The position numbers and the translations under genes are program-made. From Dickeya dadantii NCPPB 898 (lineage in GTDB: Bacteria; Pseudomonadota; Gammaproteobacteria; Enterobacterales; Enterobacteriaceae): 32,000 nucleotides of DNA. This document shows, piece by piece, positions 3,266 through 17,872 of the stretch. Within the stretch, counting starts at the first letter, position 1. Each line of letters begins with the position of its first letter. The notes beneath the pieces were generated by a model. That model did no database searches. It was not told the DNA's origin and worked only from the letters and a program-made list of their open reading frames with translations. The DNA is taken from positions 1,682,551-1,714,550 of the forward strand of contig NZ_CM001976.1 in assembly GCF_000406145.1 (NCBI RefSeq). Direction: 5' to 3'.

Positions 3266-4033
3266 TTAGACGTAGGAATCGTCGTCGTCGTAGGAATCAT
3301 CAGCCGCGAAATCGTCGTAGCCGCTGTTCTGCGGTTCGTCGTCGGCGTTGCTGTTCCAAAAGTTGTTGCCGGCACCGGCACCGTTGAACGTATCCAGATT
3401 GTCCGCACCGAAATCCCGGAAGCTGTCGCCGACGTTACCCAGCGGGTTCTCGTTGAGCACCGGATTTTCGTTGATGATGTTGATGATTTCTTCCGGCTGC
3501 GAGCGGTGGAACATGCCGGTCAGCATATCGGCCAGCACCACGCCGCCCGCCACGCCGGCGGCGGTCTGCAACGCGCCGCTCAGAAAACCGCCCGCACGGG
3601 ACGGCGCCGGTTGCGCATAGCCCGGCGCAGGCTGGCCGTAACCCGGTGCCGGCGGCGTATATCCCATCGGCTGACCGTATCCGGCCGGCTGGCCATAACC
3701 CGCCGGTTGCGACGGCTGCGGCGCGCTGTTGCGACTGCCGCCGCCAAACAGCCCGGCCAGAAAACCGCCGCTGCTTTGCTGTGGACGGGCAGAGGCTTCC
3801 TGCGTCAGTCGGTTGACCTCGGCTTCCAGCTCTTTCACCCGCTGATCCAGCTGTTTCAGCGCCGCTTCCTGAATAATCATCGCCTGCGCCATGTAGTAAG
3901 GCGCGGCTGGCTGCTGGCGAATGTGGTCATTGATTTGCTGTTCTGCCTTGAGATCCCGAGGGCCCGTGTTGGTCTCGGCTGTTTTCAGTCGGCTAAACAG
4001 ACCATCAATAAGGCGTTGTTCTTCAGATTGCAT
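3266..4033 (-). CDS. DUF2076-family protein, 255 aa, with an N-terminal coiled-coil-like region, a G/Y/P/Q repeat middle and an acidic C-terminus
   Basis: MQSEEQRLIDGLFSRLKTAE...AAPYYMAQAMIIQEAALKQLDQRVKELEAE matches my memory of DUF2076. Internal repeats are GYGQPAGYGQPMGY and PAPGYGQPAPGYAQPAP. The tail is DDSYDDDDSYV. SD is GAGG, 7 nt before the ATG. Confidence 0.75.
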   Translation of the reverse strand: MQSEEQRLIDGLFSRLKTAETNTGPRDLKAEQQINDHIRQQPAAPYYMAQAMIIQEAALKQLDQRVKELEAEVNRLTQEASARPQQSSGGFLAGLFGGGSRNSAPQPSQPAGYGQPAGYGQPMGYTPPAPGYGQPAPGYAQPAPSRAGGFLSGALQTAAGVAGGVVLADMLTGMFHRSQPEEIINIINENPVLNENPLGNVGDSFRDFGADNLDTFNGAGAGNNFWNSNADDEPQNSGYDDFAADDSYDDDDSYV

Positions 4034-4254
4034 AGGATTACCTCAAGAGATATTGGATTGCGGACCCGTCTAATCAGGCCGGTCCTGCGGCTGTTTTGTC
4101 ACACCCTTCGCCGCCATCCTACTGCGTTCCTGCGGGCTAATACACGATTGTCGGGTAAAGCTGCTTACAAATTTGTTACCAATTACGGCAAACCGACGCC
4201 GGTCGTTCTGCCGGTTTTCGTCTTACTTTTTCCGCTATTGATATTTTACCTGCC

Positions 4255-4394
4255 GGAGGAAATGGTGATTAATACTTTCACACGCCGGAAGCCTGCCAGA
4301 ACGGGCTTCCGGGCCGTGCAGCTACGCTGAGCGAAGGGATACGCCGCTCAGGCGAAACAGGACGGCCTGCACGGTTGGAAGGCGTCATTTTTTT
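4255..4394 (+). promoter_or_regulatory. Candidate leader-peptide/attenuator element: a 22-codon uORF (4262-4330), mutually exclusive helices, and a T7-tailed hairpin
   Basis: GGAGG at 4255-4259 precedes ATG 4262 and GTG 4265. Helix A is 4285-4293 with 4304-4312 (9 bp). Helix B is 4314-4321 (CCGTGCAG) with 4367-4374 (CTGCACGG), 8 bp. The terminator-like helix is 4361-4368 with 4380-4386 (one bulge), followed by TTTTTTT at 4388-4394. No promoter was identified. Confidence 0.35.
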
Positions 4395-4442
4395 ATCCGT
4401 TTTACGAACCGGTTTCCCATTTATCGACCAGGAGGAATCACC

Positions 4443-4565
4443 ATGTCCCGTCTGTGTTGTTGCGGCTGCTCCATGCTGAATGTTTCGACATTTGTTAATT
4501 TCATTGATGGAGTCCGCCATGAGTCAACCCGCATCCCTGCCCGTACTCGACTTTTCCCTGCTTGA
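4443..4565 (+). CDS. Candidate 40-codon upstream ORF with a cysteine run (MSRLCCCGCSMLNVSTFVNFIDGVRHESTRIPARTRLFPA); it overlaps the oxygenase start in another frame
   Basis: AGGAGG at 4430-4435 lies 7 nt before ATG 4443. Codons 5-9 are TGT TGT TGC GGC TGC. Stop is TGA at 4563-4565. There is no homology evidence; the call rests on the strong SD and on context. Confidence 0.35.
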   Translation: MSRLCCCGCSMLNVSTFVNFIDGVRHESTRIPARTRLFPA

Positions 4566-5553
4566 CGGCAATGCCCGGCAACGTGCCGATTTTCTGCAAC
4601 GCCTGAATCACGCCGCGCGTGAAACCGGCTTCTTCTATCTGACCCACCACGGCGTCGACCCGGAATTGCAACAACGCGTTCAACGGCTGTCGCGCGCTTT
4701 TTTTGCCTTGCCGGACGCGGAAAAACAGCGGGTGGCGATGATCCGCTCTCCCTATTTTCGTGGCTATAACGTCGCGGGCGCAGAGCGTACCCGCAGCGAA
4801 CCGGACTGGCGCGAGCAGTTCGATATCGGGGCCGAGCGCCCGCCGCTGCGCCTGTTATCCGGCGATCCCGCCTGGCGACGGCTACAGGGGCCGAATCAGT
4901 GGCCTGTGTCGCTGCCGGAACTGAAAACCGCATTGCTGGAGTGGCAGCAAACCCTGACCCGCATTTCGCTGCGTTTACTCCGTGCCTTCGCTGAAGTGCT
5001 GGGGCTGCCGATAACCGCGTTTGATGCGCTGTACGGCGATAAACCCAGCGAGCATATCAAGCTGATTCGCTATCCGGGCCGGGCGACGGCGGACAGCCAT
5101 CAGGGAGTCGGCGCGCACAAGGATTCCGGTTTCCTGACGCTGTTGTTGCAGGATCAGCAGTCTGGTTTGCAGGTGGAGGTCGAACCGGATCAATGGGTGG
5201 ACGCGCACCCGCTGGCGGGGTCGTTTGTGGTCAATATCGGCGAACTGCTGGAGCTGGCGACAAACGGTTATCTGCGCGCCACCGTGCACCGGGTGGTGTC
5301 GCCGCCGGCCAGTCAGGAACGGCTGTCGGTGGCTTTTTTCCTCGGCGCGCAGTTGGATGCGGTGGTGCCGGTGTTTCCGCTGTCGCCGGCGCTGGCGAAA
5401 CTGGCTCGCGGGCCGGCCAGCGACCCGAACAACCCGCTGTTGCGTGAAGTGGGTTGGAATTACCTGAAAGGGCGCTTGCGTTCCCACCCGGAAGTGGCGA
5501 AGCGCTACTACGGCGATGTGGTGCAGGCGCAGCAGCAGGCGGTTACCGCCTGA
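4519..5553 (+). CDS. 2-oxoglutarate/Fe(II)-dependent oxygenase of the isopenicillin-N-synthase-like family, 344 aa
   Basis: I chose the start at ATG 4519 (GGAG at 4509-4512) because family members typically begin near the LPV(I/L)D motif (MSQPASLPVLDFSLLDG). The HxD...H-type core is visible (GVGAHKDSGFLTLLLQD ... LRATVHRV). Confidence 0.85.
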   Translation: MSQPASLPVLDFSLLDGNARQRADFLQRLNHAARETGFFYLTHHGVDPELQQRVQRLSRAFFALPDAEKQRVAMIRSPYFRGYNVAGAERTRSEPDWREQFDIGAERPPLRLLSGDPAWRRLQGPNQWPVSLPELKTALLEWQQTLTRISLRLLRAFAEVLGLPITAFDALYGDKPSEHIKLIRYPGRATADSHQGVGAHKDSGFLTLLLQDQQSGLQVEVEPDQWVDAHPLAGSFVVNIGELLELATNGYLRATVHRVVSPPASQERLSVAFFLGAQLDAVVPVFPLSPALAKLARGPASDPNNPLLREVGWNYLKGRLRSHPEVAKRYYGDVVQAQQQAVTA

Positions 5554-5596: not shown

Positions 5597-6403
5597 ATGA
5601 AAAATCATAATTTTTTTGCTCTGACGGCGATGGCATTGGCAATGGGACTGTCGGTATCGGCTCAGGCGGCCGATGCCTTGCGGGTGGCGGCGGATCCGGT
5701 GCCGCACGCGGAAATTCTGGAGCAGATTCAAAAGGCGGACCCGTCGCTGAAGCTGAAGGTGGTGGAGTTGAGCGGCAACGTGAACGCCAACGAACTGCTG
5801 GCCAGCGGCGATGTGGACGCCAACTACTTCCAGCACGTGCCTTATCTGCGCGATCAGGAAAAAGCGCTGGGCAAAAAATTCGTGGTGGCGGCCACGGTGC
5901 ATATCGAACCGCTGGGGATTTATTCCCGCAAATACAAATCGCTCCACGAGGTGAAGGAGAACGCCACCGTGGCGGTGCCGAACAACGTCACCAACCTCAG
6001 CCGGGCGCTGTACCTGTTGCAGGGGCAGGGGCTGATCAAACTCAAGGCGGGTTATAACGACCCGTCGAAAGATCAGGCGACGCCGAAAGACATCGCCGAC
6101 AACCCGAAAAAACTGAAGATCAAAGAGATTGAAGCGGCGCAGATCCCCCGTTCGCTGGATGACGTCGACCTGGCGGTGATCAACGGCAACTACGCGCTGG
6201 AGGCCGGGCTGGTGCCGTCCCGCGATGCGCTGGGGCTGGAGAGCGCCAGCCATAATCCATACGCCAACATTCTGGTGACCACGCCGGCGCTGCAAAACGA
6301 TCCGCGTATCAAGCAACTGGCGAAGGATCTGGAGTCCAAAGCCACGGCCGACTTCATCAGTCAGCGCTATAAAGGGTCGGTGATTGCGGTGGCGGGGCAA
6401 TAA
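5597..6403 (+). CDS. MetQ/NlpA-family ABC substrate-binding protein, 268 aa, with a Sec signal (no lipobox Cys)
   Basis: The signal peptide is MKNHNFFALTAMALAMGLSVSAQA/AD. Family-typical segments are LRVAADPVPHAEIL and NYFQHVPYL. Confidence 0.85.
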   Translation: MKNHNFFALTAMALAMGLSVSAQAADALRVAADPVPHAEILEQIQKADPSLKLKVVELSGNVNANELLASGDVDANYFQHVPYLRDQEKALGKKFVVAATVHIEPLGIYSRKYKSLHEVKENATVAVPNNVTNLSRALYLLQGQGLIKLKAGYNDPSKDQATPKDIADNPKKLKIKEIEAAQIPRSLDDVDLAVINGNYALEAGLVPSRDALGLESASHNPYANILVTTPALQNDPRIKQLAKDLESKATADFISQRYKGSVIAVAGQ

Positions 6404-6406
6404 CGG

Positions 6407-7198
6407 ATGATTCGCATCGAACGGCTGGGGAAACGCTATCCGGGGTGCGCGCAGCCCGCGCTGGAGAACGTGTCGCTGACCATTCCGTCAGGGGCGGTGT
6501 ACGGTATTCTCGGGCGTAGCGGCGCGGGCAAGAGCACGCTGATTCGTTGTCTCAATCTGCTGGAGCGGCCCACCGCGGGCCGTATTCTGATGGACGACTG
6601 CGACATCGCCCGCCTGTCGCCGCGGGCGTTGCGCCAGCAGCGTCAGCGCACCGGCATGGTTTTCCAACATTTCAATCTGCTGCATGCCCGCACGGTGCGG
6701 GATAACGTAGCTGTGCCGCTGGAAATCGCCGGGGTCGGCAGGCGCGAGCGGGAAGCGCGCGTGACGGAATTGTTGGCGTTAGTCGGGTTGAGCGACAAGG
6801 CGCTGGCTTACCCGTCACAGCTGTCCGGCGGGCAGAAACAGCGGGTCGGCATCGCCCGTGCGCTGGCGGCGCAGCCGCGTTATCTGCTGTGCGACGAGGC
6901 CACCAGCGCGCTCGACCCGGAAACCACCGCGTCGATACTGGCGCTGCTGGCCGACATCAACCGGCAACTGGGGCTGACCATTGTGCTGATCACCCATGAA
7001 CTGGAGGTGGTCAAAGCCATCTGCGATCACGCGGCGTTGCTGGAGCAAGGCCGCGTGGCGGAAAGCGGCGCGCTGCGAACGCTGCTGGCGGACCCGGCTT
7101 CCCGCCTGCGACAGGTGCTGTTGCCGAATCTGGACGCCGAGCGTGCGTTTTTGCGGCGACACGGCGTAGAGGAGGGGGAATTGTGCAAAGTCGCCTGA
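6407..7198 (+). CDS. MetN-type ABC ATPase, 263 aa, without the C-terminal regulatory (NIL/C2) domain
   Basis: Walker A is GRSGAGKST, the signature is LSGGQKQR, and Walker B is [11 protein letters not shown]. Only about 25 aa follow the ABC core. The 3' end overlaps the permease start by 16 nt. Confidence 0.9.
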
Positions 7199-7854
7199 GT
7201 TGGGAAGACTTTTTCCCGATCATGCTGAACGCGACGCTGGAAACCCTGTACATGGTGGGGCTGGCGGCGCTGTTTACCGTGCTGGTGGGGCTGCCGACCG
7301 GCGTGTTGCTGTTTATCAGCCGTCAGTCGGGCATCATGCCGTTGCCGCGAGTGAATGCGGTGCTGGGCGGGGTGATCAATGTCGGGCGTTCGCTGCCGTT
7401 CGTGGTGTTATTGATTGCCCTGATCCCGTTTACCCGCTGGGTGGTCGGCACGACGTTGGGCAGCACCGCCGCGGTGGTGCCGATTACCGTCGGTGCGTTT
7501 CCGTTTTTCGCTCGTATTGTGGAAAACGCGTTGGCCGAGGTGGATCGCGGCCGGATAGAGGCGATTGTGTCGATGGGCGGCACCGTCTGGCATGTGATCA
7601 CTAAAGCGTTGCTGCCGGAAGCGCTGCCGTCGATTCTGGCGGGCATCACCCTGACGGTGGTGATGCTGATCGGCTTTTCGTCAATGGCGGGGGTGATTGG
7701 CGGCGGCGGGCTGGGGGATCTGGCTATCCGCTACGGTTATCAACGTTTCAATCAGCAGGTGATGGCGGGAACGATGATCGTACTGGAGCTGCTGGTGCAA
7801 CTGGTACAGTCGCTGGGCGACAGGCTGGTGCGTCGGCTGGCCTACCGACGGTAA
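7183..7854 (+). CDS. MetI-type ABC permease, 223 aa
   Basis: GTG at 7183 is preceded by GGAGG (7171-7175). The sequence aligns by eye with E. coli MetI ([12 protein letters not shown]..., [23 protein letters not shown]). An alternative ATG lies at 7222. Confidence 0.85.
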
Positions 7855-16534: not shown

Positions 16535-16774
16535 TTTTCTTTGTAAGCTCAGCCAAAATGAATCGATAGGGTATAAAAACCTGATTTTTCGGTGATACGC
16601 CAATGCAATAAACCGATATCTCATGTGCAAGAAATGCATATGACCTGCTATCCGGCATCGGGGCTGATTTATGCTTTTTTTTGCTGAGAAATCATGGAAA
16701 TGTTATTTACGGTGCCACGGTCGCGTTCGCTAGTTTCTCGCCATTGAAACCGCCTGCAATGAGTGGAGAAAAAC

Positions 16775-17872
16775 ATGCAACAACAACGAGATCGCCATCG
16801 TTACCGTGGCTGGGTCGGCCTGTTTAAAGGCGCAGGGCTAGTGCTGCTGACGGTCGCGACGCTGGGGAGTTCAGCACGAGCGCAGGAGGCCAAACCGGCG
16901 GAAATCCGCATCGGGCTGCCGGATCAGAGCGCGGGCAGCAAGCCGTTTATCGGCGGGCCGCTGGGGCTGGCCTATATTCGCCACAGCCTGGAACAGGCGT
17001 TTGAGCCACAGGGCATCAAGGTGCATTGGTCGTTTTTTAAAGGCGCGGGACCGGCGGTGAACGAGGCGCTGGCCAACCAGCAACTGGATGTGGCGTACCT
17101 CGGCGATCTGGCGGCGATCATCGGCCGTTCCGGCGGGCTGCCGACCCGGGTGTTGCTGGGGTCGCGCGGTTCCAGTTCGTATCTGGCGGCGACGCCGGAG
17201 TCCGGTATTGCGCGGATTGAGGACCTGCGCGGCAAACGGGTGGCGGTCTACAAAGGCACCGCCGACCAACTGTCGTTTGAGCGGGCGCTGAAAAGCGCCG
17301 GGCTGAACGAGCGGGATATCCGGGTCATCAACCTTGACTGGACCGCCGGTAAAGCGGCGCTGGCGGCCCGGCGCATCGATGCGGTGTGGGGCGGCGTGTC
17401 GCTGCTGGCGCTGCGCCCGCAGGGGATTCGCATCATTACCTCCAGCCGCGACCTGGGCTGGGCCAATACCACCCAGGCGGTGGTGCTGGCGACGCAGGAT
17501 TTTATCCAGCGCTACCCGCAGGTCACTCAACAACTGGTAGCGGTGCTGGTACAGGAAGCGCACTGGGTCAGCGACCCGGCGCATCTGGCGGACTATATCC
17601 AACTGATGGCGGACCAGAGCCAGATTCCGGCCGCGCTGTTTGAAGAGCAGTTCCGGCCGGATTCGCTCAACCTGCAAAGTTCGCCGCGTCTGGACCCGTT
17701 CCTGCGCAGCAACCTGCAGGACAGCGTGCAACGCGCCCACGCCGCCGGATTAATTCGTTCCGCGTTTTCGGTGGAGGAATGGTTGGATAGTCACGTTGTC
17801 GATCAGGCGTTGACCGACCTGAAACTGGAGCGTCAGTGGCCGAATTATGACGCCAGCGGCAAGCCCCAGTAA
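16775..17872 (+). CDS. NMT1/SsuA/AtsR-like periplasmic substrate-binding protein, 365 aa
   Basis: ATG at 16775 has GGAG 6 nt upstream. The signal-like N-terminus is ...GLVLLTVATLGSSARA/QE. The body is an SsuA-type fold (IRIGLPDQSAG..., LDVAYLGD, VAVYKGTADQ). It is divergent from the permease operon. Confidence 0.8.
   Translation: MQQQRDRHRYRGWVGLFKGAGLVLLTVATLGSSARAQEAKPAEIRIGLPDQSAGSKPFIGGPLGLAYIRHSLEQAFEPQGIKVHWSFFKGAGPAVNEALANQQLDVAYLGDLAAIIGRSGGLPTRVLLGSRGSSSYLAATPESGIARIEDLRGKRVAVYKGTADQLSFERALKSAGLNERDIRVINLDWTAGKAALAARRIDAVWGGVSLLALRPQGIRIITSSRDLGWANTTQAVVLATQDFIQRYPQVTQQLVAVLVQEAHWVSDPAHLADYIQLMADQSQIPAALFEEQFRPDSLNLQSSPRLDPFLRSNLQDSVQRAHAAGLIRSAFSVEEWLDSHVVDQALTDLKLERQWPNYDASGKPQ

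Follow-up and report, generated by a model that had tools for sequence, protein, structure and literature searches.

A conserved cysteine-codon leader ORF overlapping the start of an oxygenase/MetQNI-like operon in Enterobacterales: a putative Cys-tRNA-sensing translational attenuator

We examined a stretch of 32,000 nucleotides (nt) from Dickeya dadantii NCPPB 898 (contig NZ_CM001976.1, positions 1,682,551 to 1,714,550 of the forward strand), referred to below as the window, and all coordinates are positions within it. The window contains an operon encoding a 2-oxoglutarate (2OG)-Fe(II) oxygenase and a MetQNI-like importer, and the 5' leader of this operon carries a short upstream open reading frame (uORF) with a run of cysteine codons, which is the subject of this report (Table 1). 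The uORF passes the Shine-Dalgarno (SD) sequence of the oxygenase gene (GGAG, 4509 to 4512, 6 nt ahead of ATG 4519) and the oxygenase ATG out of frame and stops at TGA 4563 to 4565, which is 47 nt into the oxygenase ORF in a different frame. CTCCAT (4469 to 4474) is complementary to ATGGAG (4507 to 4512), and the sequence of an AATGT-TTCG-ACATT hairpin lies at 4479 to 4492. The initial annotation of this DNA had pointed out the leader SD and ATG, the 40-codon ORF, its Cys codons, the complementarity, and the hairpin, and all of these were placed correctly when the sequence was read again. The uORF is unannotated, as none of 10 uORF peptides was found by exact look-up in a collection of 15 billion predicted proteins. 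The covariance models of Rfam 15 gave no match in the region from 4034 to 4520, even at E ≤ 10.

Table 1. Coordinates of the leader and operon features in the window
Feature	Position	Strand	Basis or remark
Leader SD AGGAGG	4430-4435	+	7-nt spacer to ATG 4443
Leader ORF (uORF), 40 codons, peptide MSRLCCCGCSMLNVSTFVNFIDGVRHESTRIPARTRLFPA followed by stop	4443-4565	+	Sequence read, orthologue comparison
Cys run TGT TGT TGC GGC TGC (C-C-C-G-C), codons 5-9, proposed sensor codons	4455-4469	+	
Predicted helix, 5' arm (UG, UUGU, GCGG, GCUCCAU), overlapping Cys codons and anti-SD CUCCAU	4453-4474	+	RNAfold minimum free energy (MFE)
Predicted helix, 3' arm (AUGGAGU-CCGC-(C)-AUGA-(GU)-CA): oxygenase SD, spacer, start codon 4519-4521, codons 2-3	4507-4526	+	RNAfold MFE
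Oxygenase of the 2OG-Fe(II) type, isopenicillin N synthase (IPNS)/1-aminocyclopropane-1-carboxylate (ACC) oxidase-like, 344 aa	4519-5553	+	Pfam DIOX_N and 2OG-FeII_Oxy
MetQ/NlpA-family substrate-binding protein	5597-6403	+	Pfam/NCBIfam
MetN-like ABC ATPase	6407-7198	+	Pfam/NCBIfam
MetI-like ABC permease	7183-7854	+	Pfam/NCBIfam
DUF2076 gene, upstream and divergent, as is a LysR-type regulator	3266-4033	-	

A scan of one-genome-per-species contigs with the oxygenase as the query yielded 80 orthologous loci with 67 to 86% identity, all from Enterobacterales. An SD-led ATG uORF starting 67 to 103 nt 5' of the oxygenase ATG was present in the window and in 50 of the 80 loci. These 51 leaders, which fall into 14 sequence clades, form the set used for the comparisons below. 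The uORF occurs in Dickeya, Brenneria, Symbiopectobacterium, Sodalis, Klebsiella, Kosakonia, Phytobacter, Buttiauxella, Cedecea, Trabulsiella, and other genera, and it is also present in a separately fetched Pectobacterium locus (MMSDYSCCC). Nearly all orthologous leaders have an SD-like motif (GAGG, AGGA, or GGAG) ahead of the uORF ATG. The first 12 codons of the uORF include three Cys codons in 39 leaders, two in 6, four in 4, and five in 2, and the run starts anywhere from codon 2 to codon 7. The peptides begin with M-S-R-L-CCCGC in Dickeya, M-x-H-Y-R-CC(C) in Brenneria, MTGYRCCCC in Symbiopectobacterium, MTEYCCCC in Sodalis, MRCCCP in the Klebsiella oxytoca group, Kosakonia, and Shimwellia, MMRCCCA in Phytobacter, MMLRCCCA in Buttiauxella and Dryocola, and MQRCCCY in Trabulsiella. 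Past the Cys run the peptides cannot be aligned, except for a G-x-x-N/H-E pattern that is forced by the oxygenase SD and ATG, and Cys makes up only 1.6% of the remaining residues.

The distance between the uORF start and the main start is 67, 70, 73, 76, 79, 85, 88, or 103 nt, which places the two in a single phase in all 51 leaders. The uORF frame is free of stop codons up to the main ATG in 49 of the 51 leaders, compared to 2 and 21 for the other two frames; counted by clade, the figures are 13 of 14 compared to 1 and 2. The uORFs of leaders L011 and L026 stop 22 nt 5' of the main ATG, and the Cys run is still kept in both. The Cys codons of the uORFs are TGT and TGC at a ratio of 124:35 (78% UGU), and their interchange leaves Cys intact. 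The invariant phase, the open uORF frame, and the interchange of TGT and TGC with retention of Cys therefore indicate selection on coding. SD-led ATG ORFs with CCC in the first 12 codons were also counted across the window and 83 fetched loci (about 0.6 Mb, both strands); 45 were found, 42 of which were the Cys leader, against a background CCC rate of about 0.2% among all ATG ORFs. By these sequence comparisons, the occurrence of a leader ORF with a Cys run at this position is far beyond chance. The comparison of orthologous operons that the initial annotation had called for is favorable to it: the uORF, its SD, and the Cys run are kept in 14 divergent clades, and the remainder of the peptide is not.

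Two other observations were made on ORFs of this kind. A second SD-preceded ATG ORF, MCCCAM(K/R), was detected at three loci (L064:5321, L076:5322, and L080:5318, from Phytobacter, Klebsiella spallanzanii, and Kosakonia quasisacchari) about 2.3 kb 3' of the oxygenase start. By its position it lies probably inside the ABC ATPase gene, where a conserved coding motif is probably being read in an alternative frame. In a Symbiopectobacterium metagenome-assembled genome (L054), the oxygenase ORF is cut to 106 codons and is a probable pseudogene, and the Cys-run uORF upstream of it is intact.

A conserved Cys cluster is a peptide feature as well as a codon feature, and the uORF product could in principle be a Cys-rich micro-protein or a nascent-chain sensor of metal or redox state, as is the Bordetella CruR; a metal-sensing uORF product with conserved Cys does exist in Proteobacteria (PMC9426467). 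We consider this very improbable for the present uORF. Besides the Cys run, only the G-x-x-N/H-E pattern is kept, which is dictated by the oxygenase SD and ATG, and peptide length and sequence otherwise vary freely. The last 10 to 20 residues are fixed by the overlapping oxygenase codons, and a conserved arrest motif at the C terminus, of which RAPP is an example, is lacking. The Cys residues directly follow one another (CCC) and are not in CXXC-type spacing, and the absence of all 10 tested peptides from the protein collection likewise speaks against a micro-protein family. CruR-type products (DUF2946; PMC9426467) differ in that they form a protein family with a conserved CXXC and a C-terminal RAPP, neither of which is found in the enterobacterial uORF.

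RNAfold predicted a helix of about 17 bp with small bulges in the window, in which the Cys codons are themselves base paired to the spacer and AUG of the oxygenase gene. The initial annotation had proposed an anti-SD helix of 6 bp; its CTCCAT/ATGGAG pairing was recovered, and its length was too short, as the predicted helix extends over 4453 to 4474 and 4507 to 4526. Its proposal of the UUCG hairpin at 4479 to 4492 as a functional part was not sustained, since this hairpin is not kept even in Dickeya oryzae. Other clades have their own versions of the pairing. In Klebsiella and Kosakonia, GCG-CUGUUGU-UC-CCGAA pairs with UUCGG-AG-ACAAUG-CGC, and in Trabulsiella, UGUUGUUA-CUCC pairs with GGAG-A-UAACAAUG. 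The MFE structure pairs at least 8 of the 20 nt of the oxygenase translation initiation region (TIR; -14 to +6) with the Cys-run region in 39 of the 51 leaders.

We compared this pairing with several controls. The duplex energy in the window was -20.7 kcal/mol, compared to -14.8 kcal/mol for dinucleotide shuffles (z = -2.15, p = 0.035), and the mean z over the leaders was -1.1. The number of TIR nucleotides paired to the Cys window was about twice the shuffle expectation in 13 of 14 clades (Wilcoxon p = 0.0004), and duplexes of cognate arms were more stable, by 1.6 kcal/mol, than those formed with an arm from another clade (p = 0.011). In an unfitted MAFFT alignment, 68% of the cells of the Klebsiella-type register were paired, compared to 34 to 50% with slid partners. 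The covariation of this register was 0.196, compared to 0.06 to 0.11 for slid partners, and none of 500 shuffles reached this value; the compensatory pairs were CG/UA (20/15), GC/AU, and AU/UA. In the Dickeya-type register, 61% of the cells were paired, compared to 32 to 41% with slid partners. The U-G, G-U, and U-A pairs of a Cys codon with the main AUG were invariant in 49 to 51 of the 51 leaders. Covariation between the arms is thus modest, with pairing above the shuffled, slid, and swapped controls, and from these predictions a helix between the Cys-run region and the oxygenase SD and AUG is likely to be real.

The same base complementarity could be taken to mean that the UGUUGUUGU tract is a mere antagonist of the ribosome-binding site (RBS), that is, a constitutive cis-repressor or thermometer-like helix against ACA-AUG, in which case the Cys codons would be a coincidence of frame and the uORF either a bystander or an enhancer of translation acting constitutively. 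UGU can pair with ACA and, by way of G-U, with AUG; 78% of the Cys codons are UGU, and the pairing of a Cys codon to the main AUG is nearly invariant, as described above. However, the tract always stands in the Cys frame although its distance from the uORF ATG shifts by whole codons, and Cys persists despite nucleotide differences (UGC GGC UGC in Dickeya and UGU CGU UGC UGC in Sodalis). In addition, the SD and ATG of the uORF are always there, and the frame is open for 20 to 30 codons. We regard this explanation as highly unlikely.

To model a stalled ribosome, a footprint of 28 nt (P site -12 to +15) was masked, and the cost of opening the oxygenase TIR (here -13 to +5) was computed. In the window, the predicted cost was 13.6 kcal/mol for the free leader and 7.3 kcal/mol with the footprint on the Cys run, and a drop of 6 kcal/mol was obtained for P sites from 2 codons before to 8 codons after the first Cys codon. 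When the footprint was placed at the initiation codon, the cost changed by only about 0.3 kcal/mol, and the effect was gone once the P site had passed codon 15. Averaged over the 51 leaders, the gain was 2.5 to 3.2 kcal/mol with the P site between 2 codons before and 8 codons after the first Cys codon and about 0 elsewhere. The range of positions giving unmasking is broad and contains the Cys run, and the stall model is therefore consistent with, rather than diagnostic of, a switch.

A run of codons for one amino acid in a leader peptide is the hallmark of classical transcription attenuation, as in his, trp, or leu, and a leader peptide could also act through Rho-dependent termination, as in tna. 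Rho-dependent polarity on an untranslated oxygenase ORF may be a plausible secondary effect. As the primary mechanism, however, either form of termination seems most improbable. Because the uORF overlaps the oxygenase start, a terminator would have no space; the terminator-like sites listed were at 3908 to 4215 and 4576 to 4588, none of them between 4443 and 4519, and the leader matched no Rfam leader family.

Two further readings of the region around the oxygenase start were rejected. An oxygenase extended at its N terminus through +1 frameshifting at hungry Cys codons is precluded in the window by a TGA (4477 to 4479) in the oxygenase frame between the Cys run and ATG 4519. The oxygenase frame upstream of the main ATG is closed in 49 of the 51 leaders. 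An in-frame ATG at 4480 to 4482, 39 nt 5' of the oxygenase start, gives a 357-aa product in some public annotations of relatives (for example, P0005). This codon was not accepted as the oxygenase start; it has no SD, directly follows TGA 4477 to 4479, and lies inside the uORF loop, and the N termini of the orthologues align from ATG 4519.

The operon downstream of the leader looks sulfur related. The same four-gene order was found in Pectobacterium, Pseudomonas, and Rouxiella loci. The oxygenase, which the sources name an "isopenicillin N synthase family oxygenase," has generic relatives in the PDB, namely IPNS, ACC oxidase, and EFE-type enzymes, and the literature searched yielded nothing specific on the function of the operon. 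The transporter is MetQ/MetN/MetI-like, but its scores are below the NCBIfam equivalog cutoffs, indicating that it is a paralogue. The oxygenase of the window contains no Cys and 1 internal Met in 344 aa. Across 79 oxygenase orthologues, the means were 0.02 to 0.10 Cys and 2.6 to 3.1 internal Met, with a range of 1 to 4 internal Met. The MetQ-like binding protein has no Cys and 2 internal Met and, lacking Cys, is not a lipoprotein. A low content of Cys and Met is typical of proteins made under sulfur starvation. The sulfur-scavenging role that the initial annotation gave to the operon is therefore in keeping with the MetQNI-like importer and with the nearly Cys- and Met-free oxygenase and binding protein.

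Genes in the neighborhood likewise have a sulfur theme. An SsuA/NMT1-like binding protein (16763 to 17872) has no Cys and 2 Met in 369 aa. A 621-aa protein encoded on the minus strand (12305 to 14170) has arylsulfotransferase (ASST) domains and a C-terminal thioredoxin domain, and its gene has LysR regulators and ABC transporter genes as neighbors. The operon of Pectobacterium has a SulP transporter beside it.

Taken together, the leader is, in our judgment, probably a ribosome-mediated translational attenuator that senses Cys-tRNA in the 5' leader of the oxygenase/MetQNI-like operon. The cysteine-sensing translational switch put forward in the initial annotation gains computational support from the conserved uORF and Cys run, the recurring pairing, and the sulfur-like operon. 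We infer the stalling at the Cys codons, the exposure of the RBS that would follow, the sign of the regulation, and the downstream polarity effect. The start of the uORF (Cys codons UGU UGU UGC GGC UGC together with CUCCAU) would pair with the oxygenase SD, spacer, and AUG, and basal initiation would be low. The uORF would be translated constitutively from its own strong, unpaired SD. When Cys-tRNA(Cys) is ample, ribosomes would traverse the Cys codons and the oxygenase RBS and end out of frame within the oxygenase ORF (47 nt inside it in the window). There would be no reinitiation at the oxygenase AUG, which would not be left exposed, and the helix would re-form behind the ribosomes. When Cys-tRNA(Cys) is scarce, a ribosome would stall on the Cys run, and its footprint would hold the whole 5' arm. 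The oxygenase SD and AUG, about 40 to 60 nt downstream, would then be single stranded and outside the footprint, allowing 30S initiation. Translation of the oxygenase may then shield the polycistronic mRNA, and expression of the importer genes would rise.

The conserved open frame over the main start suggests that read-through itself matters, either by occlusion of the RBS or by avoiding termination near the helix and AUG. This brings in a close rival, which is a variant of the attenuator with the same sensor and output. Ribosomes translating the uORF would themselves occlude the oxygenase SD and AUG, Cys shortage would dam them upstream, and the helix would be incidental. The uORF frame is open across the main start in 49 of the 51 leaders and 13 of the 14 clades, and neither this nor the invariant phase is required by pure helix melting. 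Statistical support for the helix is only moderate, and folding is poor in some clades. On the other hand, the pairing between the Cys region and the TIR exceeds the shuffled, slid, and swapped controls, and L011 and L026 retain the Cys run even though their uORFs stop before the main ATG. The position of the stalled ribosome is also where masking most reduces the cost of opening the TIR. Interference independent of the helix is therefore unlikely, in our view, to be the correct form of the mechanism.

Several results weigh against a helix-based attenuator that senses cysteine supply. The uORF is missing from some 30 of the 80 orthologous loci, which belong to Erwinia, Pantoea, Mixta, Kalamiella, Pseudescherichia, Escherichia sp. 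ESNIH1, Pluralibacter, one Sodalis, and Acerihabitans, and it is also absent from the operon loci of Pseudomonas koreensis and Rouxiella. The uORF is therefore dispensable, an add-on to an operon that can be regulated otherwise. The link of the operon to cysteine supply is circumstantial. Single-sequence duplex tests were weak (median p = 0.135), the folding energy of the whole leader was unremarkable (z = +0.42), and covariation in the Dickeya-type register was not above that of shuffles. Leaders of the Buttiauxella gaviniae/noackiae type (L038 and L069) and some of the Cedecea type showed little pairing, and the clade tests are not fully independent phylogenetically. The bias toward UGU (78%) has two possible causes, namely, pairing with ACA/AUG or slow wobble decoding. 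RNAalifold found no consensus structure for the 51 leaders, as the pairing of one clade is offset from that of another by whole codons along the UGU repeats; for this reason, alignment-free tests and two explicit registers were used. With respect to distribution, complete genomes of E. coli had no homologue of the leader region.

Additional features were noted upstream of the uORF. An element beginning with TATTGATATTTTACC (4238 to 4255) is conserved in Dickeya and in uORF-less Erwinia loci. A longer stretch, CTATTGATATTTTACCTGCC...GATTAATAC (4238 to 4280), is kept in the window, in D. oryzae, and in the uORF-less Erwinia loci L009, L012, L013, L015, and L017. It is a candidate for a weak promoter (TTTACC-17 nt-ATTAAT) or an activator site of the operon. 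A separate conserved upstream box, TTAGAAGATAACAATATTGGGCG or AAATTAGAAAAGAAGGTTATTGG, is shared by Enterobacteriaceae loci that carry the uORF and others that lack it. A highly structured insertion of about 90 nt (4285 to 4385) is located 3' of the conserved upstream element, ahead of the uORF. The folding energy of the region from 4275 to 4400 is -52.9 kcal/mol (z = -2.9), and its predicted structure includes a perfect hairpin of 9 bp, CCGGAAGCC/GGCTTCCGG, next to which a second stem is nested. The insertion is absent from the orthologous D. oryzae region, and neither the window nor plasmid records yielded a further copy; a REP/MITE-like element within the 5' untranslated region is one possibility. 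A sub-threshold match to the fluoride riboswitch model (3284 to 3360, minus strand; 17.4 bits compared to a gathering score of 34, E = 0.15) falls inside the DUF2076 coding region and is most likely due to chance.

The enterobacterial leader shares features with several known systems. Leader peptides known from enterobacteria respond to His, Trp, Leu, Thr, Ile/Val, and Phe and act through transcription termination. The leaders hisL, trpL, leuL, thrL, ilvL, and pheL resemble the uORF in having a run of codons for the sensed amino acid and in reading out ribosome position. However, they choose between terminator and antiterminator during transcription, whereas here there is no terminator, the output would be RBS access, and the amino acid would be cysteine. 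Cysteine and sulfur control in enterobacteria has been described as transcriptional, through CysB and Cbl. The eukaryotic ATF4 uORF2 overlaps the main start out of frame, so that the ribosomes translating it bypass the main AUG, and amino acid starvation relieves the block. The likeness to ATF4-type uORFs is one of logic only, in the overlap and the relief by starvation, as the eukaryotic case depends on scanning and reinitiation kinetics rather than on a codon-specific stall or RNA pairing.

Closer parallels are found among leaders that act on translation. In the translational attenuation of ermC and cat, a stall in the leader ORF likewise remodels a hairpin that hides the downstream SD, an analogy that Canestrari et al. 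also make. There, the stall needs an antibiotic and a specific nascent peptide, whereas here the Cys run is the sole conserved peptide feature, which therefore points to tRNA supply as the signal. Mutational analysis of the mycobacterial Ms5788A showed that a duplex hiding the SD of the next gene is blocked by ribosomes that have stalled in the polycysteine tract (Canestrari et al., bioRxiv 10.1101/834739; Mol Microbiol 2020), and two consecutive Cys codons suffice (bioRxiv 10.1101/834739). The mycobacterial polycysteine short ORFs (sORFs; the "Cys ribulon") and the present uORF are alike in being short, co-oriented upstream ORFs with at least two consecutive Cys codons on the mRNA of sulfur or cysteine genes, although the sulfur link is circumstantial here. 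They are alike as well in the pairing of the Cys codons with the downstream SD region, here only predicted, and in the model, in which a stall caused by starvation for Cys-tRNA blocks the duplex and frees the RBS, acting on translation with no terminator.

The two also differ. The mycobacterial sORFs are leaderless, whereas the Dickeya leader is SD led (AGGAGG, 7 nt upstream) and its orthologues have SD-like motifs. Unlike the mycobacterial sORFs, the enterobacterial uORF crosses the main SD and AUG and ends 32 to 65 nt inside the main ORF out of frame. Its hosts are Gram-negative Enterobacterales, and its predicted target is an uncharacterized 2OG oxygenase with a MetQNI-like importer. Candidate Cys leader peptides upstream of cys and cbs operons were also reported for Actinobacteria, with a Rho-dependent mechanism suspected (Seliverstov et al. 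2005; PMC1262725). These were likewise found by comparative genomics, as short ORFs with Cys runs before cysteine genes and no terminator hairpin (PMC1262725). However, they are confined to Actinobacteria, and an overlap with the main ORF was not described (PMC1262725). The Cys run stands near the stop codon in the leaders of Seliverstov et al. and at the uORF start in the Dickeya type.

In the full-text library searched, which does not hold all of the literature, Cys-codon leaders were described only for Actinobacteria and none for Proteobacteria. The initial annotation had presented the leader type as not classically described in Enterobacteria. In biology at large the type is not new, as the mechanism itself has already been demonstrated in mycobacteria (bioRxiv 10.1101/834739; Mol Microbiol 2020), and the SD-led, out-of-frame-overlapping form in enterobacteria would be the new part. 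We put forward only tentatively, as a possibility, that these leaders are an unrecognized class in Enterobacterales, in which an SD-led Cys uORF acts on translation and a functional out-of-frame overlap carries unstalled ribosomes past the oxygenase AUG.

In that case, the element would be a bacterial counterpart of the eukaryotic logic of overlapping uORFs that are relieved by starvation, a tRNA-charging input would be added to the CysB/Cbl-centered control of sulfur metabolism, and similar leaders may sit on other sulfur starvation operons. If the attenuator works as proposed, ribosome-based cysteine sensing would extend to Gram-negative bacteria. The leader would also be a compact, sequence-defined translational switch that can be easily tested and reused as a cysteine biosensor. 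The finding further illustrates that comparative genomics can recognize unannotated ORFs of 35 to 45 codons. With a working attenuator, the uncharacterized, sulfur-depleted 2OG oxygenase and the MetQNI-like importer would probably be a cysteine or sulfur scavenging system of plant-associated and clinical genera, including Dickeya, Pectobacterium, the Klebsiella oxytoca group, and Kosakonia.

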